The translations under genes and the position numbers were made by a program. Below are positions 37,392 to 54,278 of a DNA stretch of 64,000 bases, one piece after another. The first letter of the stretch is position 1. Every line of letters begins with the position of its first letter. Source of the stretch: Nitrospiraceae bacterium (GTDB lineage: Bacteria; Nitrospirota; Nitrospiria; Nitrospirales; Nitrospiraceae). The stretch is from positions 327,426-391,425 of the forward strand of contig JBPKLU010000003.1 of NCBI GenBank assembly GCA_051293815.1. Reading direction: 5' to 3'. The notes beneath the pieces were generated by a model. It did not search any database and was not told where the DNA came from. It saw nothing but the letters and a program-made list of their open reading frames with translations.

Positions 37392-40300
37392 TTGATCTTT
37401 CCGCAAAGTTCCTCCATAGTAAGTAATGGCATGCTGGAAAAATCCCGCTGTTGTACGGACATGCCCACTGTGCCCCGCCATCCCCTTCGCGGCCTGTTGA
37501 TCGCCCAATTCTGCGGCGCGTTCAACGACAACGCCTGGAAACTGATCGTGGCGCTGCTGGGGATCAAGGTCGTCGCAGCGAAGATCGGCTCGTCAGGACC
37601 GGCGTTTGAGGCCGCCGCCCAGACGCACACCACAGTAGCCTTTGTCGCGATCACCCTCCCGTTGATGATCGTCTCCCTGATCGCCGGCGTGGTGGCCGAC
37701 CGCCTCAGCAAACGCACCGTCATTATCGCCATGAAGGCCGCCGAAGTGCTGCTCATGGCGGCTGGCGCAGTCGTGCTGTTGATCAATCCTTCCGCAATCG
37801 TCTGGCCTCTCTTCATTCTGGGGCTCATGGGAGTCCACAGCGCGCTCTTCAGCCCGGCCAAGTACGGGATCCTGCCGGAGGTGCTGCCGCACGAACGCCT
37901 ATCGGCCGGCAACGGCGTCCTGGAGCTCTGCACGTTCCTGGCCATCATCCTGGGCACGGCGGCGGGCGGCCTGCTGCTGGATCTCACCGATCCTTCGCCG
38001 TGGAAAGCCGGACTGATCCTGACGGCGAGCGCCGTGGTGGGCTTCATCGCCTCCTGGACAGTTCCTCGCGTCCCGCCGGCGCGATCCGACGGCGGGCTCG
38101 CCGCAACGCTCCACGGAGCCTGGTCCGCCCTCCGGACGGATCGCGTGCTGCGGCTCGCCGTCGCGGGCGCCTGCTTCTTCTGGACGGTCGCCAGCCTGGT
38201 GGGCCAGGACATGCTGGTGTATGGCAAGGCCGCGCTCGGCCTCTCCGACCGCTTCGCAGGCGCGCCGTTGGCGGTGTTTGCCCTCGGCGTCGGAGGCGGC
38301 GCCTTCCTCGCGGGACGATTGTCGGCCGCGAAGGTGGAGTACGGCCTGATTCCGCTGGGCGCCAGCGGCCTGGCTCTGTTCCTGGGCCTGCTCGGATCGA
38401 TCACGCCGAGCCTGCCGCACACGCTCGTCCTCATGGCGTGGCTCGGCGTGTCGAGCGGGTTGCTCATCGTGCCGATCAACGCGCTGATCCAGTGGCGATC
38501 GCCGGGGGATCGGCGCGGGGCCGTGATCGCGATGAGCAACACCTTTGTGTTCGGCGGGATTCTGATCGGCTCGCTGGCCGCCGAAGCCTTGTCGCGAACC
38601 GGCTTGTCCCCCAGCGGCATCCTCCTCGCCGCGTCGCTGGCGACCGTCGCGGGAACCGCTTGGGCCCTGTGGCTCCTGCCCGACGCCTTCCTCCGGCTCG
38701 TCCTGGTGTTGCTCACCCACAGCCTGTACCGGCTGCGTGTCATCGGACGGGAGCATGTTCCTCAGGCAGGCGGAGCGCTGCTCGTGCCCAACCATGTCTC
38801 GTTCGTGGACGGGTTCCTGCTGATGGCCAGCCTGGACCGGCCGATCCGCTTTGTGGTCGATGCCGCCTATGTCACCCACCCGCTACTGAAGCCCTTCATG
38901 CGAGCCATGCGGGTGATTCCGATTTCCTCCTCCGGCGGGCCACGGGTGATCCTCCACGCGCTCCGCGAAGCGGGCCAGTCGCTGGACGACGGCGACCTCG
39001 TCTGTATTTTCCCCGAGGGCCAGATCACGCGGACTGGCGCTCTGCTGCCGTTCCGTCGGGGATTCGAACGGATCGTGAGAGGCCGCACAGTCCCGATCAT
39101 TCCGGTCCATCTCGACCGGATCTGGGGCAGCATCTTCAGTTACGTCGGTGGCCGGTTCCTGACCAAATGGCCGGAACGGATCCCCTATCCGGTGACCGTT
39201 TCCTTTGGCCAGCCTCTGCCGCCCGACACGCCGGCGTATCAGGTGCGGCAGGCCGTCCAAGAGCTGGGTGAAGCCGCCTGGAGGCTGCGCAAGCCGGATT
39301 GCCAGCCGTTGCACCGGCGCTTTATTCGCGCGATGCGCCGACACCCGTTCCGCTTCGCCATGGCCGACGCCACGCAGCCCCACGTCACATGCCTCAAGGC
39401 GTTGATCGGTGCCATCGCCCTAGCGCGGGCGTTGCGCCCGCATTGGGACAACCAGCCGCACGTCGGGCTGCTGCTCCCACCGTCGGTCGGGGGCGCGCTC
39501 GCGAATGTGGCCGCCACGCTCTGCGGGAAAGCCAGCGTGAATCTCAACTACACGGTCGGCCGAGCCGGGTTGGAGTCCGCCTGCCGGCAGGCTGGTCTGC
39601 ACACCGTCGTCACCAGCCGCCGTTTCGTGAAGAAAGCCAACCTGGACGTGCCAGCAGGCGTGACCCTCATCTGGCTGGAAGACCTTGTCAAGACGATCGG
39701 ACGAGGTCAGCAACTCGCGGCGTTGTTGCTCGCAATCCTCGCGCCCGCTCGCATCATCGAGCTCGCCTGCGGCCAGTCACGGACCACCAGCCTGGACGAG
39801 CTCGCGACGATCATCTTCAGCAGCGGCAGCACCGGCGAGCCGAAGGGCGTCATGCTCTCTCACTTCAGCATCGACTCCAACGTGGACGGGGCAGCCCAGG
39901 TCCTGCACGTTCAGCGAGGCGACGTCGCGCTGGGCATCCTCCCGTTCTTCCACTCGTTCGGCTATCTGATCTTCTGGTTCGCCGTCACCCACGGCGTGGG
40001 CCTCGTGTGCCACCCTTCGCCGCTCGATGCCGCCGCGATCGGCGACCTGATCGCCCGCTACCGCGTCACCTTGCTCGTTACCACCCCCACCTTCCTCCAA
40101 CTCTATTACCGCCGGTGCACGCCAGAGCAGTTGAGCACGCTGCGCGTCATCATCACCGGGGCGGAGAAGTTGTCCGAAAAATTCGCCCAGGCGTTCTACG
40201 ACCGGTTCGGCATCAGGCCGGTGGAGGGCTACGGCGTCACGGAATGTGCGCCGGTCATTTCGACGAACTTGCCCGATTTTCGCGCTTCGGGCTTTTTCCA

Positions 40301-40883
40301 GCCGGCCTCGCGCCGAGGCACCGTCGGACAGCCGCTCCCCGGGGTGTGCGTTCGCATCGTGGATCCCGACACGTTCGAGCCGCTGCCGCCCAATACTCCC
40401 GGTCTGCTCTTGGTCAAGGGAGCCAATGTCATGAGCGGGTATCTGGGCCGCGAGGACCTCACGGCCCAGGCCATGCGGGACGGGTGGTATATCACGGGCG
40501 ACATCGCCCAGGTGGACGAAGACGGCTTCATCACCATCATCGACCGGCTCTCCCGCTTCTCGAAAATCGGCGGCGAAATGGTGCCGCACGGGCGGGTAGA
40601 GGAGGCCTTGCACGAGGCAGCCGGTGTCGAGGGACAAGTCTTCGCCGTCACAGGCATCCCGGACGAACACAAGGGCGAGCAGTTGGCGGTGCTGCACACG
40701 CTGGACGAGAAGATGATTCCGGAAATTCTGGACAAGGTCGCGGCGACCGGCCTCTCCAACCTGTTCATCCCACGCCGGGACCACTTTATCAAAGTGGATG
40801 CGCTGCCCGTGCTGGGTACCGGCAAACTGGACCTGCGCGCGCTCAAGCGTATCGCGATGGAACGGCTGCAAGGCCGCCGTTGA
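37392..40883 (+). CDS. aas: triple fusion: MFS lysophospholipid transporter (LplT-like) + PlsC-type acyltransferase + acyl-ACP/AMP-dependent synthetase (Aas-like)
   Basis: 1163 aa. N-terminal 12-TM MFS domain, HVSFVDG and FPEGQITRTG acyltransferase motifs, then FSSGSTGEPKGV and GWYITGD adenylation motifs. The true start is probably ATG 37461. Confidence 0.8.
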   Translation: MIFPQSSSIVSNGMLEKSRCCTDMPTVPRHPLRGLLIAQFCGAFNDNAWKLIVALLGIKVVAAKIGSSGPAFEAAAQTHTTVAFVAITLPLMIVSLIAGVVADRLSKRTVIIAMKAAEVLLMAAGAVVLLINPSAIVWPLFILGLMGVHSALFSPAKYGILPEVLPHERLSAGNGVLELCTFLAIILGTAAGGLLLDLTDPSPWKAGLILTASAVVGFIASWTVPRVPPARSDGGLAATLHGAWSALRTDRVLRLAVAGACFFWTVASLVGQDMLVYGKAALGLSDRFAGAPLAVFALGVGGGAFLAGRLSAAKVEYGLIPLGASGLALFLGLLGSITPSLPHTLVLMAWLGVSSGLLIVPINALIQWRSPGDRRGAVIAMSNTFVFGGILIGSLAAEALSRTGLSPSGILLAASLATVAGTAWALWLLPDAFLRLVLVLLTHSLYRLRVIGREHVPQAGGALLVPNHVSFVDGFLLMASLDRPIRFVVDAAYVTHPLLKPFMRAMRVIPISSSGGPRVILHALREAGQSLDDGDLVCIFPEGQITRTGALLPFRRGFERIVRGRTVPIIPVHLDRIWGSIFSYVGGRFLTKWPERIPYPVTVSFGQPLPPDTPAYQVRQAVQELGEAAWRLRKPDCQPLHRRFIRAMRRHPFRFAMADATQPHVTCLKALIGAIALARALRPHWDNQPHVGLLLPPSVGGALANVAATLCGKASVNLNYTVGRAGLESACRQAGLHTVVTSRRFVKKANLDVPAGVTLIWLEDLVKTIGRGQQLAALLLAILAPARIIELACGQSRTTSLDELATIIFSSGSTGEPKGVMLSHFSIDSNVDGAAQVLHVQRGDVALGILPFFHSFGYLIFWFAVTHGVGLVCHPSPLDAAAIGDLIARYRVTLLVTTPTFLQLYYRRCTPEQLSTLRVIITGAEKLSEKFAQAFYDRFGIRPVEGYGVTECAPVISTNLPDFRASGFFQPASRRGTVGQPLPGVCVRIVDPDTFEPLPPNTPGLLLVKGANVMSGYLGREDLTAQAMRDGWYITGDIAQVDEDGFITIIDRLSRFSKIGGEMVPHGRVEEALHEAAGVEGQVFAVTGIPDEHKGEQLAVLHTLDEKMIPEILDKVAATGLSNLFIPRRDHFIKVDALPVLGTGKLDLRALKRIAMERLQGRR

Positions 40884-41550
40884 ACGGTGGACGCGGAGCG
40901 AGAAGCTGGCTGACTTCAGGCCCGCTGAGCGACATCCGCGCGTCTCGTCGGCTGACAAGCGGCACTTCGTGCGTCAACGCCAGATCCACCTCGCCCCCTT
41001 GCAAAGACTCTCGCCCCCTTTCCTTGTGTCCACACAGGCGCCTTGAGCCCTCTTTCGCTGTAGAGCAACCTCATCGAAGCGACAGGTTCCTATGTTCCCG
41101 GGCCATGCCTGAATCAAGATCACGACGCCTTCATGCCAGACGCCAGCAAAGCGGTAACAGGTCCTCATCAACCTCCGGGACAGAGTCTCGATCCCGGTTT
41201 CGACGTCGCGTTTGTTCTTTCGGCATGTCCTTAGTGGTTCACTTGCGTTCGTCTTCTTGATGCGTACCTGACAGAGTCCTCCTCCGCCTTTTCCGGCTAC
41301 GCTCACGACGACGCTTGATCGACGCCGCCAGCCGCTGTGTGAAGTCTGCACCTGCACGCCAACCTCAAGGGACCTCCTCTCATGAGTAAAGCCCCCCTCT
41401 CGCTTCCGCGATCGTTGCATTCGTAGCACACTTCTTTTTCTTGTGTCCGAATTGAAACTCAGGCACTATCTCGTGCCGCAGATCAACAACGTGGAGCGGG
41501 CATCCGGGCTTCGCTCCGGTCGGGCATGAATACTGACCGCTCAGAGACGA

Positions 41551-42936
41551 TCAGAAATTGATCCGCAGGGTCAGGCTTCCGGCATTCGTTGTCGTCCGAT
41601 AAGTCCCATTGACGCCGGAATTGGGGTGGCCAGTGACCGTGCGGGGCTCAAACAGCAGAAGTTGATAGGCGAGGTCGAGTCCGATCGCCTTTCGGGTCAA
41701 CCAGCCGCCAGCGGCACCTTCACAGTCCACTACCCCGAGAACCCGTCCACCTTCCCGACAGAAAAGGCCGAGCCCGATCGACCACACATGCACGTCGGCG
41801 TCGGGGATGACCGGATTGTAATTCGCATCGGGGACGGGTGTGTGCGAACGGTTGTAGCCGGCACGGAGCGCCAGTTGCCAGGCTTCATGGTCTGGTAGAC
41901 GGAGCCACGTGTATTCCGTTCCCACGGCGATCGACACGCTATTGTTCCAGTGTTGCGGGTTGGTGATGACAGCGCCAGTGGAAAGGGCGACATCCACATT
42001 TCTCACCGATCGCCACCGGGTGTAGTCCACATCCACCTCGACCTTCCACGCGCGCTCGGCGTCCCGAAGAGGCCAGAGCGCCAGCCCCAGCGTCCAGACC
42101 TCGGGCAACAGGAAATTCGCGGAGGCGTCGGCGACCGGCGTTCCGTCGACGAGCAGTTGTCCGCGCACCGGCAAAACCGCTTGGCTGCGCCACACACCGG
42201 CAAGATTCACCCGCGGCCGGTCCGCCGTGCCAATGAGCGTGTAGAGCACGCTGGCGTCCAGGCCGGCGGTGGTGCCCTTGCCGTTCAACTCCACACGGCT
42301 GCCCGCCGGGATGCCGCCCGCGCCGGACGAAATGGACAGGCTTTCCGTTTGCCCCTCGCCGATAAAACTCGCGAACGTGAAGATGTCTGCACCGAGCCCG
42401 AGCGAGAGGCGATCCGAAACCTTGTAGGCCAGGGTGGGCTTGATGTCGAGCAGCGGAAGGCTGCCTTGGTAGCTTGTGGAAGAGAACGGCGCGCGTTCCG
42501 GGTACTTGTTGCCGAACCCATAGAGCGACAGCAGGCCCAATCCCAGACTGAGATCCCGCAGGACCGGCAGGCTTGAGCGTTCCAGGTTGGCCGTGAGATA
42601 CAGTTGGCCCGGCGGAGGCCAGCCGACCGGCCCGCCGAGATCGTTGGTCGTCTGCGCTCCGCTTGGATTCGTGAACCGGGTGTGGGGGCTGACGAATTGG
42701 ACGCCGACGGCGTGCTGGATCCCCCGCAGCCTCGTCATGGCGGCGGGATTGTAGAAGACCGCGGTCGGATCGTCGGCCTGAGCCGCAAACGCATTGCCCT
42801 GTCCGATGGCCGCCGAGCCTTGAAAAGGATTGCGAAAGCCGTCGGCATAGGCGGGAGACGCGCCCACGCCCCACACCAGCGAGACCCAGACCCAGCCTAT
42901 CAGACTTAGGAGACACCGTGCGTCGGGATCGCGCAT
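41551..42936 (-). CDS. fadL: FadL/OMPP1/TodX-family outer-membrane hydrophobic-compound channel
   Basis: Signal peptide, then ADGFRNPFQGSAAIGQGNAFAAQADDPTAVFYNPAAM, and a C-terminal ...LTLRINF ending in an aromatic residue. Start at ATG 42936. Confidence 0.8.
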   Translation of the reverse strand: MRDPDARCLLSLIGWVWVSLVWGVGASPAYADGFRNPFQGSAAIGQGNAFAAQADDPTAVFYNPAAMTRLRGIQHAVGVQFVSPHTRFTNPSGAQTTNDLGGPVGWPPPGQLYLTANLERSSLPVLRDLSLGLGLLSLYGFGNKYPERAPFSSTSYQGSLPLLDIKPTLAYKVSDRLSLGLGADIFTFASFIGEGQTESLSISSGAGGIPAGSRVELNGKGTTAGLDASVLYTLIGTADRPRVNLAGVWRSQAVLPVRGQLLVDGTPVADASANFLLPEVWTLGLALWPLRDAERAWKVEVDVDYTRWRSVRNVDVALSTGAVITNPQHWNNSVSIAVGTEYTWLRLPDHEAWQLALRAGYNRSHTPVPDANYNPVIPDADVHVWSIGLGLFCREGGRVLGVVDCEGAAGGWLTRKAIGLDLAYQLLLFEPRTVTGHPNSGVNGTYRTTTNAGSLTLRINF

Positions 42937-43033
42937 AGGGCGCGCATCGTACGAGAGCGATTTCCGCGGAGTCAAGGACTTGCCCTTAGGAGCCAAGTGT
43001 GAGACCATCATTGCCACCGCGGTCGGGAAGCCG

Positions 43034-46000
43034 ATGCCCGCACGCAACCTTACGCTGGCCAAGCTCGCGCGCCCGACTCTGCCTATCGTGCATGAGCGGA
43101 AGCGGCTGTTCCGCCTCCTCGATGCGGCGTGCAGGAGACCGGTCGTTTGGCTCACCGCTCCGGCCGGGTCCGGGAAGACGACGCTCGCGGCAAGCTACCT
43201 CGGCGCGCGGAGACTGCCTCACATCTGGTACAGCATCGACGCCGGTGATGGAGACCCCGCGTCGTTCTTTTACTATTTGGGGCTCGCTGGCAGGCAGGGC
43301 GCTTCCCGCCAGGCACGTCCGCTGCCCCTGCTGACGCCGGAATACCTGCCGGGCCTCGAGGCCTTTACCCGCAACTTCTTCCGTCTCTTTTTTGCCCAGA
43401 TCAAACGGCCGGGCGTCGCGGTGTTCGATAATTTCGAGCGCCTGCCGGAGGACTCGCCGTTGCATGACCTCCTGTCGATCGGGCTGGCCGAGACCCCATC
43501 CGGCGTCACCGTGATCGTGATCAGCCGCGCCGATCCTCCGGCCTCCTTCGCTCACCTGCTTGCATCCGGTTCGCTTGCCCTCGTGGGCTGGGAGGATCTG
43601 CGCCTGACCCAGCGTGAGAGTCTCGCGATCGGCCGGCTGCGGTCCCAGCTGAGCAGAGAGCAACTTCTCGCCCTGCATGAAGAAACGCAGGGTTGGGTCG
43701 CCGGCCTCGTGTTGTTGGTCGAACATGGCTCGCCTCGCGGGAGACGACGAACACGGGATCTCTCCTCTGGCCACTCGATGCTGTTCGACTATTTTGCGGA
43801 GGAATTGTTCAAGCGCGCGGACGCTTCGACGCGCGCGCTGCTGCTTCAGACGTCTCTCCTCTCCAAGATCACGGCTGAGGCGGCCCGACAATTGACCGGA
43901 ATCGAACAGGCCGAGGCCTTGCTGAACGGACTGGTGCGGCGCAACTACTTCACCTTCAAGCTCGCCGGCCCGTCCCTGACCTATGAATACCATCCGCTGT
44001 TTCGGGCTTTCCTGCAGTCCCGCGCCCGTATCGCTTATTCCCCACCGGAGCTGAACCGCCTGCGGCGCCGGGCGGCGGCGCTGCTCGAAGCCGACGGGTT
44101 CGTCGAAGACGCTATCGCATTATTGATTGAAGCCGGCGATTGGGACAGGCTGATCCGACTGGTTCTTCTGCAGGCGCCGGCGATGGCTGCCCAGGGCCGC
44201 AGCCAGGCCTTGGCGCAGTGGATTCAGGCCGTCCCGGACGAGATGCGCGCAGGGACACCGTGGCTCCGCTACTGGCTGGGGACTTGCCGGCTGCCGTTCA
44301 ATCCGGTCGAAGCACGAACGCACTTCAATGGGGCACTCGCGCTGTTCGAGAAGGCGAACGACCCCGCCGGTTCATATCTTGCCTGGCTGGGTCTCATCGA
44401 AAGCGTCTTTTTCGAATGGCGGGATTTCGTCCAGTTCGATCGGTGCAGGGAGCTGTTCGACGACCTCCGCCGCCATTATCCGGAATATCCATCACCCGAG
44501 ATCGAGGCTCGCATCACCTTGGCAACCTTTACGATGCTCATCAACCGCTGGCCCGATCACCCGGACCTTCCCTCGTGGGTTGCAAAAGCCGAAGCGCTGC
44601 TCTGGTCAGAGGCGGACATCAACACCCGCCTGATGCAGGCCAACCACCTGTTGTATTACTGCATATGGCTGGGGGACCTTGCCAAGGCAAAGCACCTCAT
44701 CGCCGAGATCCGGGCGGAATGGGCGAGGCAGGACATCGCGCCCCTGACCCGCCTCTGGTGGCACGCCTCGCTGGCGATCGTGTACTGGCACACGGGGGAC
44801 ATCGAACAGGGTTTGCGCGAAGTCGAGGAAGGACGCAGGCTGGCCGACGCCACTGGCATCCGTATGGTCGAGATTCAACGCCTGGGCGCGGAAATTTTCC
44901 TATTCCTCATCCAAGGCGATGTCGAGGCGGCCGAGCGCCGGCTTCATCAGACATCCTTTGCCCTCCGCCCCCAGAGTCTGCTCGACGGCTCGTACTATCA
45001 TCACCTCGCCTCGATAGTGGCTCTGCACAAAGGCCAAGTGGCCCACGCCGAAGAGTGCGCGCAGTCCGCCCTGAGGATGGTCAGGGCCAGCGGCATGCCG
45101 TTCGGCGAAGCAATCTGTCTTATGGCTTCCGCGCGCATTGCGTTGGAGACAGACCAGACGACCCGCGCACGGGATGCGCTAGACGGCGCGCGCCGGATCG
45201 CCCGCGCCATCGGCAGCCGATCCCTCGAATACATGTGCGACCTCACGGAGGCGGAGCTCGAATTCTCGGTGCAGCGAGAGCCGGAAGGATTGGCCTTACT
45301 CCGGCAAGCCTTGCGCCTCGGCAAAGCCCTTGGCCTCGCCGTTCTTCCGTGGTGGACGCGCGATCGTATCGCCCGGCTGTATGCGCGCGCGCTCAATGCG
45401 GGGATCGAGCCCGCCTATGTCAAGGAGGCGGTTCGGCGGCATGCCCTCGCGCCGCCGGCCGACATTCCGGCCGACGACTGGCCCTGGCCGATCAAGGTCT
45501 ATACCTTGGGACGTTTCGCCGTGGTGAAAGACGGCACGCCCCTTCGATTCAAAGGTAAGACCCAGCGCCGCCCGCTCGAGCTGCTCATGGCGCTGATCGC
45601 CCTAGGTGGGCACGGGGTTCCGCTCGAGAAATTGACCGACGCGCTCTGGCCGGACGCCGACGCCGACGCCGCCTATCGAGCGTTCACTGTGGCGCTGCAT
45701 CGGTTGCGCCATCTGCTTGGGTCGGACACCGCGCTCAGACTCACTCACAACCGCCTCACCCTCGAGCCGCGCGATGTCTGGGTCGATGCCTGGGCGTTCG
45801 AACGCCTGCTCAATGCCGCTGAACACGACAGCGAGAAGGCGGACATCGCCTCGTCGGCCGGCAAGGTGCTGAGCCTGTACCGTGGCCGGTTCCTCGACGG
45901 AGTAGACGCACCGTGGGTCCTCTCGTCGCGTGCGCGGTTACAGACCCGATTCCTCCACTTTGCGATCGTGCATGCTCGGCGCTTGATACGAATGGGCCTT

Positions 46001-46276
46001 TACGATCAGTCCGTGACCCTGCTCGAACAAGGTCTGGCCGCCGACGATCTCGCCGAGGACCTGTATCTGGAGCTGATGCGCTGTTATCAGGCCCAGGACC
46101 GTCCCGCCGAAGCGCTGGCGGTGTATCATCGTTGCCGGCAGGCGCTCAAGGCCGGGCTTGGCCTTGCGCCGAACCCGGAGATCGAACGGCTCCGCCAGAC
46201 GTTGCAACAGCCGAGTGTCGCCCGTGGCGACCACCGGACTGGCTCCACACCCGACATTCCCTCTACCTCCGCCTGA
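43034..46276 (+). CDS. large STAND-type transcriptional regulator: MalT-like P-loop NTPase + TPR-like repeats + C-terminal SARP (wHTH + BTAD)
   Basis: N-terminus LTAPAGSGKTTLAASYL...WYSIDAGDGDPASFFYYL is MalT-like. The C-terminus matches SARP/BTAD: YTLGRFAVVKDGTPLRFKGKTQRRPLELLMALIALG...LYRGRFLDG...LMRCYQAQDRPAEALAVYHRCRQAL. Start at ATG 43034. Confidence 0.8.
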   Translation: MPARNLTLAKLARPTLPIVHERKRLFRLLDAACRRPVVWLTAPAGSGKTTLAASYLGARRLPHIWYSIDAGDGDPASFFYYLGLAGRQGASRQARPLPLLTPEYLPGLEAFTRNFFRLFFAQIKRPGVAVFDNFERLPEDSPLHDLLSIGLAETPSGVTVIVISRADPPASFAHLLASGSLALVGWEDLRLTQRESLAIGRLRSQLSREQLLALHEETQGWVAGLVLLVEHGSPRGRRRTRDLSSGHSMLFDYFAEELFKRADASTRALLLQTSLLSKITAEAARQLTGIEQAEALLNGLVRRNYFTFKLAGPSLTYEYHPLFRAFLQSRARIAYSPPELNRLRRRAAALLEADGFVEDAIALLIEAGDWDRLIRLVLLQAPAMAAQGRSQALAQWIQAVPDEMRAGTPWLRYWLGTCRLPFNPVEARTHFNGALALFEKANDPAGSYLAWLGLIESVFFEWRDFVQFDRCRELFDDLRRHYPEYPSPEIEARITLATFTMLINRWPDHPDLPSWVAKAEALLWSEADINTRLMQANHLLYYCIWLGDLAKAKHLIAEIRAEWARQDIAPLTRLWWHASLAIVYWHTGDIEQGLREVEEGRRLADATGIRMVEIQRLGAEIFLFLIQGDVEAAERRLHQTSFALRPQSLLDGSYYHHLASIVALHKGQVAHAEECAQSALRMVRASGMPFGEAICLMASARIALETDQTTRARDALDGARRIARAIGSRSLEYMCDLTEAELEFSVQREPEGLALLRQALRLGKALGLAVLPWWTRDRIARLYARALNAGIEPAYVKEAVRRHALAPPADIPADDWPWPIKVYTLGRFAVVKDGTPLRFKGKTQRRPLELLMALIALGGHGVPLEKLTDALWPDADADAAYRAFTVALHRLRHLLGSDTALRLTHNRLTLEPRDVWVDAWAFERLLNAAEHDSEKADIASSAGKVLSLYRGRFLDGVDAPWVLSSRARLQTRFLHFAIVHARRLIRMGLYDQSVTLLEQGLAADDLAEDLYLELMRCYQAQDRPAEALAVYHRCRQALKAGLGLAPNPEIERLRQTLQQPSVARGDHRTGSTPDIPSTSA

Positions 46277-46708: not shown

Positions 46709-47962
46709 ATGACTCGCCGCATGCGTTATCCCACCGTACCCGTGATCGTCGCAGGCTTGCTCCTCGCCTTGGCCGGTTGCGAAGACCTGATGAAACACCT
46801 GCCGGCCGGCACGGATCGCTACCTTCAGACAGGGATGTCAGTCGGCAGCGCCGTCATGAATCGGCCGACCTTCACTGAAGCCGATGAAGAGCGGATGGCG
46901 CAGGAGAACGCGAAGAAGTATGAGAGCAGCCACCAGTTGTGGGACGATCCGCTGCTCGCCACCTATCTGAACGACGTCGTCCAGCGACTCGTCGCGCAAG
47001 CCCGTCCCCGTCCGTTTGTCTACAGCATTCGCGTCGTCAACGATGCGAGCATCAACGCCTTCACGTTCGGCGGCGGGCTCCTCTACGTCAACGCCGGCTT
47101 GCTTGCCCGCATGGAAAACGAAGCCCAATTGGCCATGGTCCTCGCGCACGAGATCGCGCACGTGACAGAAAGCCACGTGACCAAGGGCATCGAAGGCAGT
47201 TACGGCATTCAGGTGCTGGGCCAACTGGCCGCGCAGGCAGCCGAGACCAGCGGCAAGGTCACACTCCCGCCTGCGTTGTTGCAAAAAACCTACGAGTACT
47301 CGATGAAGGCCGCCATCAGCGGCCACGGCCGCGCCAGTGAAACCGAAGCCGACGTCGTGGGGCTGGAGTACATGGTCAAGGCCGGCTACGACCCGCGGGA
47401 GGCGCCGAAGACGTTCGAGCAACTCCTGAAAGAATACGGCGATCAGGGCGCCCTCGAAAACTTCTTCTACGGCGACCACCCGACCAACAAGTCACGGATT
47501 GCCAAGCTCACCGGCTTGGTCCAATCGAAATACAGCCAGGATTTGGCAAGCCGGAAGCTTCTGGTGAATACCGACGAGTTCAACCGGCGGACGCGCGAGC
47601 TGGTGGTGAATGTCGGCAAGCTGGACTACGACCGCAAGCGGTTTAAGACAGCCGCAGCGATGTTTGAAAAAGCGCTGGCGGCGAAGGACAACGACCCCGT
47701 GTTGCACTACTACCTTGGAAAGATCGCACTGGAAACGGAAAGCGGTCCCGAGGCCTCCAAGCGGGCCATCGGACATTTCGTCGCCGCGATCAAAGCCAAC
47801 GAGGCATTCGCCGACGCCTATAGAGAGATGGGGCTCGCGTACTACAAAATGGGGGACCGGAAAACAGCAATTGAAGCTTTCGAGCGGTACCTGGCGCTCA
47901 ATCCTCATGCTAGTGACGCCGACCGGATCCGGAAGTCCATAGAGGACCTTAGAGGTTCTTAG
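46709..47962 (+). CDS. M48-family Zn metalloprotease with C-terminal TPR repeats, lipoprotein (BepA-like)
   Basis: Lipobox LALAGC, HEIAHV (HExxH), and C-terminal TPR-like AAAMFEKALAAKDNDPVLHYYLGKI...AFERYLALNP. Confidence 0.85.
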   Translation: MTRRMRYPTVPVIVAGLLLALAGCEDLMKHLPAGTDRYLQTGMSVGSAVMNRPTFTEADEERMAQENAKKYESSHQLWDDPLLATYLNDVVQRLVAQARPRPFVYSIRVVNDASINAFTFGGGLLYVNAGLLARMENEAQLAMVLAHEIAHVTESHVTKGIEGSYGIQVLGQLAAQAAETSGKVTLPPALLQKTYEYSMKAAISGHGRASETEADVVGLEYMVKAGYDPREAPKTFEQLLKEYGDQGALENFFYGDHPTNKSRIAKLTGLVQSKYSQDLASRKLLVNTDEFNRRTRELVVNVGKLDYDRKRFKTAAAMFEKALAAKDNDPVLHYYLGKIALETESGPEASKRAIGHFVAAIKANEAFADAYREMGLAYYKMGDRKTAIEAFERYLALNPHASDADRIRKSIEDLRGS

Positions 47963-48148
47963 CAGCACAACGCTGAAAACCCAGACCCCTGACGAGCGAA
48001 CGTGACAAGAGACGAAAGGAATATGCGGTATCAGTGTAGCGATTATGACGAGTCCGAGGCGCAATTGTACAGCTTCCGTGACCCCGTCAGACGGAAGGTC
48101 ATAACGGCTGCCATCAATGGTACTGTTTACGTACCTATCCTTGAGTTG

Positions 48149-48164
48149 TGGCAAGAGATTTGGT
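48149..48164 (+). promoter_or_regulatory. candidate sigma-54 (-24/-12) promoter upstream of the paralog island
   Basis: TGGCAAGAGATTTGGT has GG and TTG at the correct 11-nt spacing, but the -12 element is GG rather than GC. It lies about 115 nt upstream of the P1 start. Confidence 0.25.
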
Positions 48165-48276
48165 TAGCCGCCAGAAGGGCAAGCCTCGGTCTGACGAAAC
48201 CAAGACAAGCTCTCAGAAGTCAGTGTCCAACCCGGACTCGCCCCAAAAACGATTCACTGTTTCAAAGGAGGCCACG

Positions 48277-48942
48277 ATGCTGTCTCTAACTGCCAACCAC
48301 TTAAAACTCTATCAGGGATCTTGGTTCGTGATTCTGCTGTGCTCACTGGTCCTTCTGCTTATTCCCCCATTAGTGGATCCCACCTATGCAGGAAGAGCCG
48401 AACGTGTGAAGAAGTGCGCAACAAAAGGGGACGCGCGCGTCAGTAAGAGCATTTCTACTAAAGTGGTTATGCATGCGATCGAGAAATATCAGATCGAGGA
48501 CCTGGTGGATAAAGAGGACATCAAAGCCGCAAGAAAGGAGGTGTATGAATTTCTCAAGTGGAAGCTCGGCAACCCGTCTGCGATCTGTGCAGAGTACATA
48601 GGCTCGGGATTAAGGCACTTTAAAAGAGCCTACTCAGATGAGGCCGCTGCTGCGTTGCTCGGCTATACACTTCCGGGGAAAAACGGGGCCGAAATTCAGT
48701 TACCGAAGGAGCTGGCCGAGGCGCTAAAGCAGTCTTACAAAGAAGCCGGTGACAGTCTTGCCAAGACCTTACAGGATGAGTACGGGATACCACCCGAAGC
48801 CACAGGCCTTGTGGTCGACGCCGTCAGGAAGTACGCCGACAAAGCGACTGACAACTTGGGATTCAACGTGCCAAAGGGGTGGGACTTCGACAACAAGTTA
48901 CTTGACTTGGAAATCAAGCTGAAACGCAAAGCGAAGGCATGA
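48277..48942 (+). CDS. secreted/anchored protein, paralog 1 of an uncharacterised family
   Basis: AGGAGG RBS. N-terminal hydrophobic anchor, then AGRAERVKKCATKGDARVSKSI...FLKWKLGNPSAICAEY...AYSDEAAAALLG, shared with the next two ORFs. It lacks their long charged tail. Confidence 0.7.
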   Translation: MLSLTANHLKLYQGSWFVILLCSLVLLLIPPLVDPTYAGRAERVKKCATKGDARVSKSISTKVVMHAIEKYQIEDLVDKEDIKAARKEVYEFLKWKLGNPSAICAEYIGSGLRHFKRAYSDEAAAALLGYTLPGKNGAEIQLPKELAEALKQSYKEAGDSLAKTLQDEYGIPPEATGLVVDAVRKYADKATDNLGFNVPKGWDFDNKLLDLEIKLKRKAKA

Positions 48943-48967
48943 TGATTAAGCCACTGGGGAGGAGACA

Positions 48968-49834
48968 ATGGACGCCATGATTTCCCCGGTGAGTTCGAAA
49001 GGTCTCTTTCATGTGGCCCGTTTCGTAGGAGCCGCGCTTCTGCCGTTGTGCTTCTCGCTCCATAATCCAAGCCTTGCTGTAGCGGGCGAATTAGAGCGAG
49101 CTGCCAAATGTTCGACCAAGGGCGATACCAAGGTGAGCAAGAGCATCGCCCAAAGGGTGGTCAAGTATGCCATAAAGAAATACGAAATTGCCGATTTGGT
49201 GGATGATGCCGGTGTGAAGAATGCGCGCAAGCAGGTCTACGCCTTTCTGAAATGGAAACTCGGCAATCCCTCCGCCGTCTGCGCCCAATATATAACGGCT
49301 GGGCAGAAGCATTTCAACAAAGCCTACAGTGATGAAGCGGCCGCCGCCTTGCTGGGGTTCGATCTTCCCGATGAAAAAGCAGGGCGCGCTACTTTTCAAC
49401 TCCCGCCCGAACTGGTCGATTTCTGGATGATGACAGAAAAACTCCAGAATACTGGCAAGGCCTATGTCCTCCAGTACTACTATGGCATACCCGCGTTCCT
49501 CACGAAACAGATTTTGGACACGCAGACTGAGTTGACAGGGAAAGTGCTCAAGAAGGTGGGCTTCAACATCCCTAAGAAATACGACTTCCCGAATGAGACA
49601 GTGTTGGTGACAATTGAAGCTAAGAGGAACCCAGAGCAAGCCAGAGCCAAGTTCCAAAAAGTCATGGATGATGCAGCAAAGCAGGAACAGGCCCAGGTTC
49701 AGCCAAGTGGGCCTTCAACTAAATCCCCCAGCACTGTAGGCGAAGAAGAGGGTGAAGAGGAAGAAGACATGGGGGAAGAGGGAAGCAAGGAGACCAAGAA
49801 GACTAAAAAGACCAAGAAGAAGCTTCCTTTTTGA
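48968..49834 (+). CDS. secreted protein, paralog 2 (acidic-then-basic C-terminal tail)
   Basis: Signal-like N-terminus, then ERAAKCSTKGDTKVSKSI...FLKWKLGNPSAVCAQY. The tail is EEEGEEEEDMGEEGSKETKKTKKTKKKLPF. Confidence 0.75.
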   Translation: MDAMISPVSSKGLFHVARFVGAALLPLCFSLHNPSLAVAGELERAAKCSTKGDTKVSKSIAQRVVKYAIKKYEIADLVDDAGVKNARKQVYAFLKWKLGNPSAVCAQYITAGQKHFNKAYSDEAAAALLGFDLPDEKAGRATFQLPPELVDFWMMTEKLQNTGKAYVLQYYYGIPAFLTKQILDTQTELTGKVLKKVGFNIPKKYDFPNETVLVTIEAKRNPEQARAKFQKVMDDAAKQEQAQVQPSGPSTKSPSTVGEEEGEEEEDMGEEGSKETKKTKKTKKKLPF

Positions 49835-49978
49835 ACGCTCTTATCAGGATCGAACAGCAACCACTAGTAATGAGGAGATCCTGAATAAATCAAAACGGGC
49901 CTCAAACTGGAGATTCCGCTGAACCGTAAGGCGTGAATCGAAAATGAGCGCGCCGCTTGAGCGATGGAGGTGAGGGAC

Positions 49979-50833
49979 ATGATCACCTCATATATTTCAA
50001 AGGGTCTGTCTTGTCGAGCTATGGCAATCGTCGGCATCGTTGGATTCGTGGCTTGGTTCCTACTGACTGCCGATGCGGCCTTTGCCGGCAAAGCGGAGCG
50101 AGCTGCAAAGTGTGCCACAAAAGGCGATGCGAAGGTGAGCAAGAGTATCGCGAAAAAGATGATCAACCATGCCATTAAACAATACGAGATTGCGGACCTT
50201 GTGGATGACCAAACGGCGAAACGTGCTAAGAAAGAGGTCTATGCCTTTCTCAAATGGAAACTGGGTAACCCTTCGGCGATCTGCGCGCAGTATGTCACGG
50301 GGGGCCAAAAGCATTTCAATAAAGCATATGGAGACGAGGCGGCCGCCGCATTGCTCGGTTTCAACCTGCCGAATGAAAAGGCCGGCCGTGCAACTTTTCA
50401 GCTCCCTCCCGAGTTGGTTGACCTCTGGGTGATGACGGAAAAACTAAAGAACGCGGGCAAGGCCTATTTGCTTCAGGCGTTCTTCGGGATCCCGCCCGGA
50501 TTATCCCGTCTAGTGCTCGATGAAATCACGGAACAGCAGGGAAAAGTTATTAAACATCTGGGATTCAATATTCCGAAAGACTACGACTTTCCGAATCAAA
50601 TGGTTCAGGCGACGATTGAAGCCAAGCGCAATCCCCAACAGGCCAAAGCGAATTTCCAGCGTGCCGTCGATGAAGCTGCAAAGCAGGAACAGTCCCAGGC
50701 TCAGGTGGGTGGGCCTACGGCTCACACTTCTGACATTCTAGGTAACGAAGAAGGAGAGGAAGAGGATATGGAGGAGGAAGGAAGCGAGCAGACTAAACAG
50801 GTTAAGAAGAAAAAAAAGAAGCTTCTGTTTTGA
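49979..50833 (+). CDS. secreted protein, paralog 3 (acidic-then-basic C-terminal tail)
   Basis: A GGAGG RBS precedes ATG 49979 (the track starts at 49964). Roughly two-thirds or more identical to paralog 2 by eye. The tail is NEEGEEEDMEEEGSEQTKQVKKKKKKLLF. Confidence 0.75.
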   Translation: MITSYISKGLSCRAMAIVGIVGFVAWFLLTADAAFAGKAERAAKCATKGDAKVSKSIAKKMINHAIKQYEIADLVDDQTAKRAKKEVYAFLKWKLGNPSAICAQYVTGGQKHFNKAYGDEAAAALLGFNLPNEKAGRATFQLPPELVDLWVMTEKLKNAGKAYLLQAFFGIPPGLSRLVLDEITEQQGKVIKHLGFNIPKDYDFPNQMVQATIEAKRNPQQAKANFQRAVDEAAKQEQSQAQVGGPTAHTSDILGNEEGEEEDMEEEGSEQTKQVKKKKKKLLF

Positions 50834-50889
50834 AGACCAATAACGAGAGAATTACGTGACATGCAATCATTGGGATGAGGAGGTCATAA

Positions 50890-51861
50890 ATGAATCACCA
50901 TGGAGATCGAACAAGGGTATTTTTCCAGAAAGCGATGAGCCTTAGAGCGATCGTGCCGGTGAGCTTTCTGGTGCTAACCTGTTGCATGGCCCAGGTCGAG
51001 GCTGGAGCACGACCACAACCAGAGGATGCGAAATCACCACAGGGGGTGACACGAGCCAGCGAGCAGTCGGCTCACTCTCAAGTTTCATCCACTCAGCCGA
51101 ATACCTTGACTATCGCAGGTCACGTCTCTGACCCTGTGCAAGAGGGAAGAATGCTCCTCGGCAAGACATCGCCTGAATCCAGGGCAAAAAAGTCTAAAGA
51201 AAAGTCTAAAGATAAGGGCAACGCCCCAACCAAGCGCCTCGACGCCTCCGCTGAAGAAGAGGAGGAGGAAGAAGAGGAGGACGAGGAAGAGGACGAAGAC
51301 GCAGCGGATAGCTCCGAGAAGGGTTCAGGTGGATTGGGTTCCTACATGATTCAGGCGGATTTCGACAAAAACGTCGCGGCCACGCTGAAAGACGTGGTGG
51401 TTCGGGGCGCCGTATTATCCGCGACGGTATCCCTCACTTATCAAGGCGGCAAAGACAAGAAACATTCGGAATGGCTGAGAACCAGCGAAGAGGGGAAATA
51501 TACCCACCTGTTGGACTATGCAACAGGCACCACCTATCCGATCAAGAAACTCGACGGATTTACCTCCGGCACACTCAACCAAGGCCAGGATGTGAAGACC
51601 CTCCGCGCGACGTTCGAAGCGCCACCCAAGAACGTCAAGACGGTCGCCATTACCATTTATGGCATCGGCACGTTCGACGATGTCACACTCGGCAGCGGCA
51701 TGTCGGGAAGAAATCCGAAGATCAAGGGAAGCAAGACCTCCTCACCCGGCTCAGAGTCGGAGGAAGAAGAGGACGAGGAAGAGGACGAAGAGGAGGAAGA
51801 GGAAAATGAGAAGAGCCTGGCAGGGCAAGGCCAAAAGGCATCAGGGGGAAAGGGCCGGTGA
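50890..51861 (+). CDS. secreted protein with a beta-rich core flanked by two poly-Glu/Asp tracts
   Basis: GAGGAGG RBS and signal-like LRAIVPVSFLVLTCCMAQVEA. Acidic runs EEEEEEEEDEEEDED (nt 51253-51300) and SEEEEDEEEDEEEEEENE (nt 51754-51810) flank the core VVVRGAVLSATVSLTYQGG...TVAITIYGIGTFDDVTLG. Confidence 0.7.
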   Translation: MNHHGDRTRVFFQKAMSLRAIVPVSFLVLTCCMAQVEAGARPQPEDAKSPQGVTRASEQSAHSQVSSTQPNTLTIAGHVSDPVQEGRMLLGKTSPESRAKKSKEKSKDKGNAPTKRLDASAEEEEEEEEEDEEEDEDAADSSEKGSGGLGSYMIQADFDKNVAATLKDVVVRGAVLSATVSLTYQGGKDKKHSEWLRTSEEGKYTHLLDYATGTTYPIKKLDGFTSGTLNQGQDVKTLRATFEAPPKNVKTVAITIYGIGTFDDVTLGSGMSGRNPKIKGSKTSSPGSESEEEEDEEEDEEEEEENEKSLAGQGQKASGGKGR

Positions 51862-51895
51862 CGGCGGAACACACAGAACAGAGGGATCTGCGCGA

Positions 51896-52705
51896 ATGAA
51901 CCGCTGGCTCCAAGTAGGACTCAGCGTCACGATTTCCATTGCTCTGGCACTGTCGGCAGCGCGTCCCGCGTCCGCCGACCAGGCGCTGGATACAGCCATT
52001 GACAATGCCGGCAAGTACACCGCGTTTGTGTTTCTGGTCAACGGGTTCACCGGCTGCTGCATCCCCGGCGAGGAATTCCAAAAATTCCTGCGCGAGAAAG
52101 GGGCCTATGTCCACATCTCGAACTGGAACGAGATCGACCGGAAAGGGAACCCCGGCGTGCCGGCGGTGGACCCGGACAACTTCGCCTGGAAGGTCACGCC
52201 TTCTCCGCCCACCGACGAGACCTTCATCCAACAAATGCAGGACGTCATCAAGAGGATCGACGCCAAGAACCCGTCCATCCCAATCGTCCTGATCGGTCAT
52301 AGCTACGGCGGGGACGCCGTGCTGCAGGTCACCAAAAGAATCCACGACAGGAAGATCGCCTTTCTCGGCGTCCTGGATGGCGTGGGGAAAGGAGGATTGC
52401 GGAAGAACATCACCAAGCCGGTGCCCGACAACGTCGAATATTTTTTCAATCGCTGGCAGCAAAACCCGCCCTTTGCCGGGGATCATTTCATTCCGTTCGA
52501 TCGGCTGCTCTCCGGCAAGATCGAGAGCCGCGCGGGGGAAAGCAACCAGAAAAAGCAGAACACGGAAAAGACCGGTAGGTGCAAGCGGAAGTATCGGGAT
52601 CCGGTCAAAGCGATTCCCCAGTTGTTGTCGCATGGAGAAGTTCCCAAGGACAAGTGCATCCAAAAGAAGATGAAGAAGATCCTCGCTCAGCGGGTATTTT
52701 CCTAA
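51896..52705 (+). CDS. secreted alpha/beta-hydrolase (lipase/esterase-like, GHSYGG)
   Basis: Signal peptide MNRWLQVGLSVTISIALALSAARPASA, then FVFLVNGFTG and IVLIGHSYGGDAV nucleophile elbow. Start at ATG 51896, inside the longer track ORF. Confidence 0.6.
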   Translation: MNRWLQVGLSVTISIALALSAARPASADQALDTAIDNAGKYTAFVFLVNGFTGCCIPGEEFQKFLREKGAYVHISNWNEIDRKGNPGVPAVDPDNFAWKVTPSPPTDETFIQQMQDVIKRIDAKNPSIPIVLIGHSYGGDAVLQVTKRIHDRKIAFLGVLDGVGKGGLRKNITKPVPDNVEYFFNRWQQNPPFAGDHFIPFDRLLSGKIESRAGESNQKKQNTEKTGRCKRKYRDPVKAIPQLLSHGEVPKDKCIQKKMKKILAQRVFS

Positions 52706-53182
52706 ATTTGTCTGCGCCGAATCCCAGAGCTTCATCTCGGGGCATCTCCGTGGTTCGCCTGACGTGAGAAACTTCTGGTTCTGGGTGGCGGAATCTGGCT
52801 GTTGGTCGCCAGGCTGTTTCTTGCAATCGGGGTTTTCTGTCGGAATCCAGCGGGCGAGCGCGATCGACCGGCGGGAGAAGGAAGGTCGAAGCGGTGGAGA
52901 GAAAGCTCGTCCGCGGTGAGGCCCAAGGACCGGAAGGTGTTTGGGGCCCACTCGACGAACGCGGCCCGATTCAGGTGACCCACCAGCCAGATCGGCTGGA
53001 CACGTATCGGGTGGCCGACCAGAGCAGAGGAGACCTCATCTTACTCTTGATCTTCAGCGCCTCGGCGGGTTCGTCGTCTTCAACCCCCTCAGTAAAAGAA
53101 CGCGCGAGAACGTGCTACGCCGTAGCAGCATGCTCGTGGAGGCGGCAGTCATCGCATCGTTTCCGCCCATATCCGCAGCATC

Positions 53183-54070
53183 ATGTCGCCGGATAAGGCG
53201 GGTCATTGGCTCCAGGACCACACTGGCAAGGTGGGGGACGAGATGCGCAGTCGCGTGTCAGTATCTGGATCAGCAGAGAGTGAAGATGCCGGGCTCACCG
53301 ATTCTGAAATTGCTGAGTCGTTCGATCCCGCTGTGAGTCGGTATGGGTCAGCGGGATTGTCTTCGCCGTCGGCACCATGCTGGTCTGTGCGGGCGTTTCT
53401 AACTGGCAAGAACCGGAAGCGGTTCTATCGCGAAGCCGTTCAAGCCCGGGCGGCGATCGGCACCTGTATTGCTTTGCTTGGTTTGCTGATCGGCCAACCC
53501 GAGCTGCGCCGCGCGACCGGTCGCCTGGCACGCATTGTCCTCCCGCATTTGGGACAAGATAGCGGAACGAACGAATTCCGAACAGTTCTCGCTTCGAGGG
53601 CTCAAACAGGCCTGGAAATCCGGCGCCGTCTGGTGACGACCATCCTCGCGTTGATCACGGTCGCCGGCTTCTTCGGGTTCTTCGTGATCATCGAACCGCC
53701 GTGGGTCAAAGTCCTCGTAGGCGGCGCGCTGCTGGACGCCGCGGTGTGCCTAGCCGCTGGAGTTCCAGCGGGCTTGATTCGCCCCTCCGTACGTCTTACT
53801 CTTAACGACCTGCGCATCGCGCCAAACAACCCTCAACTTAAAGGGAGGAGAAAACACGATGTTTGCGCTCACACACGCCATGCTGCTCCCGATCCTGCTC
53901 GGAACCTTAATCGCCTCCTTGTCAGCCTGCACCTTGAAGGCGACTCTGGATACGACATCCGACGGTACCACCAATTTCTTGTCTTCCACCTCCGGCAAGA
54001 CTTGGTTCACCGAGGATGGATTGGTACGGGAGGAGTTGAAAGTCGAGGCATTCGCCTGGATGAACTATGA
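53183..54070 (+). CDS. hypothetical membrane protein (boundaries doubtful)
   Basis: 295-aa ORF with 3-4 hydrophobic helices. Its last 212 nt overlap the better-supported DUF3015 gene in another frame. Confidence 0.3.
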   Translation: MSPDKAGHWLQDHTGKVGDEMRSRVSVSGSAESEDAGLTDSEIAESFDPAVSRYGSAGLSSPSAPCWSVRAFLTGKNRKRFYREAVQARAAIGTCIALLGLLIGQPELRRATGRLARIVLPHLGQDSGTNEFRTVLASRAQTGLEIRRRLVTTILALITVAGFFGFFVIIEPPWVKVLVGGALLDAAVCLAAGVPAGLIRPSVRLTLNDLRIAPNNPQLKGRRKHDVCAHTRHAAPDPARNLNRLLVSLHLEGDSGYDIRRYHQFLVFHLRQDLVHRGWIGTGGVESRGIRLDEL

Positions 54071-54278
54071 GAACCTAAAACAGGACATGGCGCGAGGCGG
54101 CGGAGAATATCTCTCGTCGCTCGGCACGTTGATGAACGTGCCTCCCGACCGGCAGACGGAGTTCCTGGCCTTCGTTCAGCAGCGATATCCGATGCTTGTG
54201 GGCAATGACCGAACAACCCCCGCGACGATACTGGCGGCCTTGCAACAAGAATGGGCAGCGCGGTCAGCGCTTCAATGA
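53859..54278 (+). CDS. DUF3015-like lipoprotein
   Basis: Strong RBS AAGGGAGGAG, lipobox LSAC, and ...NYENLKQDMARGGGEYLSSLGTLM..., as I recall for DUF3015. Confidence 0.65.
   Translation: MFALTHAMLLPILLGTLIASLSACTLKATLDTTSDGTTNFLSSTSGKTWFTEDGLVREELKVEAFAWMNYENLKQDMARGGGEYLSSLGTLMNVPPDRQTEFLAFVQQRYPMLVGNDRTTPATILAALQQEWAARSALQ

Follow-up and report, generated by a model that had tools for sequence, protein, structure and literature searches.

Among the known systems with which we compared the locus described here, the foldase Lif is a single-copy, membrane-anchored protein of ~340 aa that is required by its own lipase, and the envelope protein TonB has a spacer of the form (Glu-Pro)n-(Lys-Pro)n. 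We analysed a stretch of 64,000 nucleotides (the window) from a Nitrospiraceae bacterium (contig JBPKLU010000003.1, assembly GCA_051293815.1), a member of the Nitrospirota, which include major nitrifiers. On its forward strand, three paralogous genes, P1, P2 and P3, follow each other in tandem between positions 48277 and 50833. A preliminary description had presented them as a recent triplication of an uncharacterised secreted protein family with a conserved Cys pair and acid-then-base tails. We found that the triplication is old, and that the family, as judged from its sequences and from structural models, lies outside every known family compared and represents a new exported helical domain. 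We report no mechanism but a well-defined "dark" family.

Three paralogous genes, their age and their tails

By combining a list of open reading frames (ORFs) with an alignment of their products, we recovered three collinear paralogous ORFs, as previously described. P1 (48277..48942, +) is a short-type paralog of 221 aa, identical to the database protein P0038, whereas P2 (48968..49834, +; 288 aa, identical to P0007) and P3 (49979..50833, +; 284 aa, identical to the database protein P0001) are of the long type. Good ribosome-binding sites precede ATG 48277 (AAGGAGG), ATG 48968 and ATG 49979. The ORF list also offers alternative starts, at 48148 for P1 and at 49964 for P3; for the latter, ATG 49979 is most likely the true start because GGAGGTGAGGG lies upstream of it and P0001 is 284 aa long. 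The three proteins share a core of ~180 aa, whose aligned columns are identical on average at 67%. Over the codon alignments, amino-acid identity amounts to 66% for P2/P3, 52% for P1/P3 and 48% for P1/P2, a similarity that, from the alignments, is far beyond chance.

At their N-termini, all three proteins carry positive charges and a hydrophobic stretch followed by a candidate cleavage site before a Gly. The predicted Sec signal peptide of P1 (48277..48390, +; 38 aa), with its hydrophobic stretch and small residues at -3/-1, would be cleaved after T-Y-A and before G39, and those of P2 (48968-49084, +) and P3 (49979-50086, +) after AVA and AFA, respectively. Behind its signal peptide, P2 has the helical core, one additional helix and a tail that is disordered. 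When a simple heuristic for signal peptides was applied to the N-terminally complete family members, 95 of 110 passed it. Most of the members that failed still look exported by eye, the exception being one branch, found in a metagenome-assembled genome (MAG) labelled Bacillota. Together with the AxA-before-Gly type of site in the window copies, this upholds the proposal that the proteins look secreted, and P1, P2 and P3 can be taken as real genes encoding predicted Sec-exported proteins.

Each mature protein contains exactly two Cys, a third one being located in the signal peptide. The conservation of this pair, which had been proposed for the family, holds for all three paralogs but not family-wide: it was found in ~24 of 41 aligned members and was absent in ~11, while a few others have the first Cys shifted by one residue; overall, about two thirds of the members carry a co-varying pair. 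Since the two Cys co-vary in presence and absence across the family, the periplasmic disulfide that had been suggested is plausible, with one branch having dispensed with it. In the same way, the KGD tripeptide is invariant among P1, P2 and P3, but the wider family keeps only its G-D (88% of 112 domains), for which reason we rejected an integrin-type significance of KGD.

Then, we examined the age of the copies. First, compared with their orthologs in locus L002 (GCA_975325915.1), which are 84% identical for P1 and 93% identical in the core for P3, the ratio of nonsynonymous to synonymous divergence (dN/dS) was 0.09 for P1 and 0.17 for P3. These two reading frames are under purifying selection and the genes are therefore real. 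Second, synonymous differences between P2 and P3 are saturated (proportion of synonymous differences, pS, 0.78). Third, when 112 domains were placed in a neighbour-joining tree, P3 clustered with L002_b and P0004, P2 forms an ortholog group of its own with P0006, P0003 and P0012-P0014, and P1 falls into a separate short subfamily with L002_a, P0031, P0033 and P0035. Because the longest contig is 2,356 bp for P0004 as well as for P0006, these two proteins are probably encoded on one and the same contig. With synonymous sites saturated between P2 and P3 and each copy grouping with its own orthologs, the triplication is old, not recent. In other loci of the Nitrospirota, too, members of the short subfamily of P1 come with a long-type copy, and tandem or nearby copies of different subfamilies occur in the window and in eleven further loci (L001, L002, L005, L014, L016, L018, L022, L023, L025, L028 and L030). 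The common unit is a mixed pair, not a single gene.

The tails were found as they had been described: P2 and P3 end in ...EEEGEEEEDMGEEGSKETKKTKKTKKKLPF and ...EEGEEEDMEEEGSEQTKQVKKKKKKLLF, P1 in ...KLKRKAKA. In P2 (49742..49831, +), a Glu block (EEEGEEEEDMGEEG) is followed by a Lys block (KETKKTKKTKKK) and the end LPF; in P3 (50741..50830, +), a Glu block (EEGEEEDMEEEG) is followed by the Lys block KQVKKKKKK and the end LLF. P1 has no acid/base tail. Among the three paralogs, only P2 and P3 have a terminal Phe, preceded by KKKKKK or KKTKKK, and within the family the acid-then-base order is confined to the closest (Nitrospirota) branch. When we looked, in all 262 non-overlapping ORFs from the loci retrieved, for a C-terminal window rich in Asp/Glu with one rich in Lys/Arg behind it, we obtained eight matches, all of them in the Nitrospirota block that holds P1-P3 and belonging to three unrelated families, namely the P1-P3 family, a poly-Glu protein and a ~150-aa acidic protein. 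Orthologs of the poly-Glu protein in other loci bear acid-then-base tails as well. Comparison of long-type orthologs with 60-70% identity shows a variable linker but a preserved end K-K-L-(P/L/R)-F, and for this reason the tail looks like a selected, shared feature of the Nitrospirota gene block. Its occurrence on two further, unrelated families of the block extends the preliminary description and strengthens the suggestion that the tails may serve in electrostatic binding or self-assembly. The tails were also compared with known C-terminal sorting signals (PEP-CTERM, LPXTG, GlyGly-CTERM and the type IX CTD): none of the curated models of NCBIfam and Pfam matched them, and, by eye, they lack PEP, LPXTG and GlyGly motifs as well as a transmembrane segment at the end.

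These data bear on the idea that the locus arose by recent triplication for dosage or diversification, that its products self-assemble through their zwitterionic tails and that the C-terminal Phe acts as a sorting signal like that of outer membrane proteins (OMPs). The three tandem copies and the block-charged tails speak for it. However, besides the saturated synonymous sites and the separate orthologs of each copy, dN/dS values well under 1 speak against diversifying selection, P1 lacks the tail through which it would assemble, and the terminal Phe follows poly-Lys in proteins modelled as all-alpha, with neither a beta barrel nor an amphipathic terminal strand. We therefore regard this scenario as highly improbable, its recent origin and its OMP-like signal being contradicted by these results.

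The predicted fold and the spread of the family

The family is small: a set of 5.8 billion proteins contains 58 clusters of it at 90% identity, and a set of 1.84 billion contains only 89 representatives at 50% identity. In addition, we found six loci among 185,579 species genomes, all in MAGs (Terriglobales, Planctomycetota, Bacillota and uncultured), and JGI metagenomes yielded 19. Neither the viral contigs of IMG/VR nor the plasmids of PLSDB contained relatives, and we rejected a phage or plasmid origin on this basis. A 'Nitrososphaera' label on two short contigs was set aside as probably a binning error; the genes flanking the three paralogs place the window in the Nitrospirota.

All source names of family members read 'hypothetical protein', and we found nothing relevant to the family in the literature. 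Scans of P1-P3 against Pfam, NCBIfam and PADLOC gave best E-values of at least 0.086, far under the curated cut-offs. A Pfam scan of 67 diverse members returned no recurrent family, with at most three members matching any one family, and ten longer fusion proteins gave no Pfam match. A second profile search in the 5.8-billion protein set yielded no Pfam-annotated fusion, the precomputed Pfam fields being empty for all matches, and a sequence-profile search of the Protein Data Bank (PDB) with the family produced chance matches only. In this respect, the preliminary description of the family as uncharacterised was borne out.

By running AlphaFold2 with the family alignment on full-length P3 and mature P1, we obtained two models that are both all-alpha, with seven long helices and two short bridges of 2-3 residues. 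For P3, the predicted local distance difference test score (pLDDT) was 82 over the full length, above 90 at residues 40-250 and below 50 in the charged tail; for mature P1, it reached 93.3, with a predicted template modelling score (pTM) of 0.84. Searching 350,542 PDB chains with both models by Foldseek returned a best E-value of 0.37 and TM-scores of at most 0.22, and one of the models matched nothing among the viral structures of BFVD. The models thus describe a fold predicted with high confidence that has no relative among solved structures.

Numbering residues along P3 from 49964, the positions conserved in the family include R46, G54-D55, Y93, F95-L96, W98-K99, G101, P103, Q109, G114, H117-F118, D124-E125-A-A-A, L130, G132, P148, P177, P204 and D208. 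This pattern could be read as that of a new kind of enzyme acting on an envelope substrate, either a lipid or a cell-wall component, with an active or metal site built from R46, D55, K97, Q109, H117, D124, E125 and D208. Consistent with such a role, the His, the Asp-Glu, the Arg, the Lys, the Gln and the Asp are kept in 86-96% of the 112 domains across several phyla, H117 would lie two helical turns from D124/E125 on the same long helix of the model, and the neighbourhoods are rich in hydrolases. On the other hand, no enzyme fold resembles the models, the His and the Glu are lost in the most divergent branch (P0120, P0121, P0132 and P0138), and the conserved positions are mostly Gly, Pro, Ala, Leu and aromatic residues, as helix packing would give. 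An enzymatic function is therefore unlikely in our view.

The gene block, its neighbours and a possible role

P1, P2 and P3 sit in a ~4-kb block between the gene of an M48-TPR lipoprotein protease and that of an alpha/beta hydrolase. The protease gene (46709..47962, +) is a core gene encoding an M48 metalloprotease domain (Pfam PF01435, 2e-27) with a C-terminal TPR region matching TPR families and the lipobox LALAGC; proteins named from a Nitrospiraceae and a Nitrospirota MAG share 93% and 91% identity, respectively, with its product. Downstream of P3, the block also holds the gene of the poly-Glu protein (50890..51861, +), a predicted exported protein of 323 aa, unrelated to P1-P3, in which two poly-Glu tracts flank a folded region. 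The hydrolase gene (51896..52705, +) is again a core gene, whose product is predicted to be exported and has the nucleophile elbow GHSYGG and weak matches to Lipase_3 and Hydrolase_4. PDB sequence searches with the poly-Glu protein and with a 684-aa neighbour gave nothing useful.

A relative, L019 (chromosome OZ335950.1, 3.8 Mb), is collinear with the window, with 88-96% DNA identity across the shared genes, which encode an MFS-acyltransferase-AMP-binding fusion, FadL, a BTAD regulator, M48-TPR, the alpha/beta hydrolase, DUF3015 and Lhr. By using blastn, we observed that similarity to L019 ends at 47934 and resumes at 51964. Instead of P1-P3, L019 carries at this position an unrelated exported 288-aa protein, a poly-Glu protein ~40% identical to that of the window and a 148-aa acidic protein. 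The lack of nucleotide similarity between flanks of 92-96% identity, the gene content and the GC content at third codon positions (GC3), which is 0.56-0.62 in the block genes vs 0.71-0.84 in the flanking genes, delimit a replaceable gene block at 47934..51963 that contains P1, P2, P3 and the poly-Glu protein. Since more distant Nitrospirota loci (L002, L005, L022 and L026) carry the family at the same position, it was probably present here ancestrally, and the lineage of L019 had it replaced.

Such a replaceable block could belong to a competition locus, in which the paralogs would be periplasmic inhibitor or immunity proteins against nearby lipase-like or other exported toxins. In favour of this, exported tandem paralogs stand beside lipase-like hydrolases, the block has been swapped between genomes whose flanks are 92% identical, and its codon composition is atypical for the genome. 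Yet neither secretion-system nor known toxin domains were found among the neighbours scanned, the hydrolase carries a signal peptide itself and is encoded by a conserved core gene (89% identity in L019), and the strong purifying selection and the residues kept across phyla are unlike what is seen in fast-evolving immunity proteins. Weighing both sides, a role in competition is quite unlikely.

Several kinds of gene recur beside the family. M48-TPR adjoins it in eight independent loci (the window, L002, L005, L006/L031, L012, L016/L029, L022 and L026) and in two different gene orders; in L012, the family gene, a lipase-like gene and M48-TPR follow each other with gaps of ~30 bp. M48-TPR is far more widespread than the family, and the family is its optional companion. 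Lipase-like hydrolases likewise adjoin the family in eight loci (the window, L001, L002, L005, L006, L012, L022 and L023) and are of three types: GHSYGG in the window, Lipase_3 in L001 and GHSRGG in L012, L006, L031 and L039. An apparent M48 link in L011 was discarded, the neighbour being a sulfatase-TPR protein that is similar in its TPR part only.

Domain fusions were also found. A ~70-aa "CCxI...CCxI" domain occurs on its own in L018 and as the N-terminal part of a 673-aa neighbour in L006/L031, and it can also be detected in L036/L038. P0065, P0265 and P0266 combine this "CC...CC" domain with the family domain, to which it is adjacent in six loci. Moreover, in P0070, P0081 and L014_b, the family domain is joined to the C-terminal domain of a lipoprotein. 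Other neighbours that repeat are BNR/Ycf48-like propellers, DUF3592 membrane proteins, extracytoplasmic function (ECF) sigma factors, Ser/Thr kinases and BTAD regulators.

These regulators raise the possibility that the family members are extracytoplasmic signalling partners (ligands, co-sensors or regulators) of Ser/Thr kinases, ECF sigma factors or BTAD-type regulators. L011 and L034 have an ECF sigma gene immediately upstream of the family gene, an ECF sigma factor and/or a Ser/Thr kinase is encoded within a few genes in L011, L012, L014, L016, L017 and L036, and a BTAD regulator gene is found upstream in the window, L018, L023 and L036. However, regulators of these kinds are abundant in the phyla concerned, and the BTAD gene of the window is a core gene that is present in L019 without the family. 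A signalling role is accordingly very doubtful. In the window, the BTAD gene (42980-46276, +) encodes a 1098-aa protein and lies directly upstream of M48-TPR; its L019 ortholog has a MalT-type winged helix.

Our preferred reading, which we hold tentatively, is that P1-P3 may be periplasmic or membrane-surface binding or escort partners of the co-encoded hydrolases, working as mixed pairs and, in the Nitrospirota, tethered by their tails. After export, a short-type and a long-type copy would work together in the periplasm or at the membrane surface as non-enzymatic binding or escort partners of the neighbouring exported hydrolases, that is, the three lipase-like types and the M48-TPR protease. 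In the Nitrospirota, the protein would be anchored through its Lys block and L-x-F end, either to anionic lipid or to Glu blocks on its neighbours, so that several unrelated products of the block could be held together electrostatically. Three observations weigh against this proposal. First, the hydrolase and M48-TPR occur without the family in L019, and the same is true of most genomes bearing M48-TPR; the partnership therefore cannot be obligatory. Second, loci of other phyla lack both hydrolases and have ECF sigma factors and Ser/Thr kinases instead. Third, the conserved polar residues (H 94%, D-E 90-96%, and the R, K, Q and D) would fit an enzyme too.

A broader possibility, somewhat doubtful, is that the family might be the hallmark of an as yet unrecognised envelope system, made up of several proteins, in Nitrospirota, Acidobacteriota, Planctomycetota and other bacteria of soil and groundwater. 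Such a system would combine mixed pairs, the CC domain, lipase-like hydrolases and M48-TPR under ECF/kinase or BTAD control, with the Nitrospirota tail serving as an electrostatic tag. The recurrent neighbours and domain fusions lead to testable predictions of partners. Purifying selection has kept the predicted new fold in uncultured bacteria of soil and groundwater that belong to at least four named phylum-level groups, and the family may point to new envelope biology in the Nitrospirota.

Several further observations were made in and around these loci. Vicinal Cys-Cys recurs in unrelated exported neighbours (window 50890-51861 and 51896-52705; L006 10801-12822; L018 7199-7519 and 1213-2811; L001 10873-12087), for example as 'LTCCM' in the poly-Glu protein, 'GFTGCC' in the hydrolase, the 'CCxI...CCxI' domain and 'xCCA' in the BNR propellers. 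It was counted in 20 of 116 ORFs at most 4 kb from a family gene vs 12 of 139 further off; metal binding and a modification site are possibilities. GC3 of the variable-block genes is ~0.1-0.17 below that of the flanks in the window, L002, L022 and L019, including the unrelated replacement block of L019, and no such drop is seen in loci of other lineages. P0072, from a MAG labelled Bacillota (L007 9824-11140; L008 9632-11290), has a family domain without a clear signal peptide, followed by three ~60-aa repeats 'ERFRAVxxWAxxHGYxGGFPNFHxAxYGxGxVYG' that have no Pfam match.

Upstream of the block, the core gene at 37392-40883 (+) encodes an MFS transporter, acyltransferase and AMP-binding enzyme in a single fusion, a layout that resembles LplT-Aas lysophospholipid recycling, and a gene for a FadL-type outer-membrane transporter (41551-43155, -) adjoins it. 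In L005, genes for MlaE, an ABC ATPase and MlaD lie upstream of the block copy. There are thus hints of envelope-lipid housekeeping around the locus. Between the fusion gene and the FadL gene, a group II intron D1-D4 fragment (Rfam RF01999, 65.8 bits; 41266-41381, -) lies inside a ~675-bp stretch (40868-41541), in place of which L019, otherwise 90-92% identical, has only ~275 bp of unrelated sequence. Downstream of the hydrolase gene, the stretch 52707-53694 is absent from L019 and includes a DUF3592-like remnant (52894-53196), which is probably a decayed gene since L002 has two intact DUF3592 genes there. The ORF at 53183-54070 overlaps the DUF3015 gene (53859-54278) and is probably no gene.

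Comparison with known systems

The likeness of the family to foldases, type VI immunity arrays, saposin-like activators and the TonB spacer is one of analogy only, and among the features compared, those in common are generic (export, tandem arrangement and a lipase nearby). Like Lif (PF03280), its members are predicted to be all-helical and extracytoplasmic, with a hydrophobic segment at the N-terminus, and their genes lie next to those of exported lipase-type alpha/beta hydrolases. However, PF03280 matched none of the 67 members scanned, and the models have no fold match to any PDB chain. P1-P3 and their relatives also differ from Lif in having signal peptides that look cleavable and in forming mixed pairs or triplets, and although lipase-like genes are adjacent in eight loci, the family is found without a lipase and the hydrolase without the family (L019).

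With Tli, the immunity proteins of type VI lipases, the family shares Sec-exported tandem paralogs near lipase-like genes in a strain-variable region. In contrast to Tli, no type VI domains were detected among the neighbours scanned, the window hydrolase begins with a signal peptide of its own (MNRWLQVGLSVTISIALALSAARPASA) and is a core gene, and the P1-P3 family is under strong purifying selection and conserved across phyla. Saposin-like and other helical lipid-binding activators are, in the same way as P1-P3 appear to be, small, helical, disulfide-containing and exported near lipid hydrolases, and the basic-hydrophobic end of the tails could bind membranes. There is, however, no match in sequence or fold to these activators, and the family has seven long helices and one Cys pair vs three disulfides.

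Regarding the tails, the C-terminal Phe of P2 and P3 recalls the beta-signal of OMPs, but P1-P3 are predicted to be all-alpha and the Phe comes after poly-Lys rather than at the end of an alternating hydrophobic strand. A parallel in charge order is the spacer of TonB, which likewise has an acidic block followed by a basic block in an envelope protein. Unlike that spacer, the tails described here contain no Pro repeats, are located at the extreme C-terminus, end in L-x-F and are common to unrelated proteins of one block. If functional, a tail made of a Glu block and a Lys block on unrelated proteins would amount to a tag of a new kind, common to different proteins that bacteria export.

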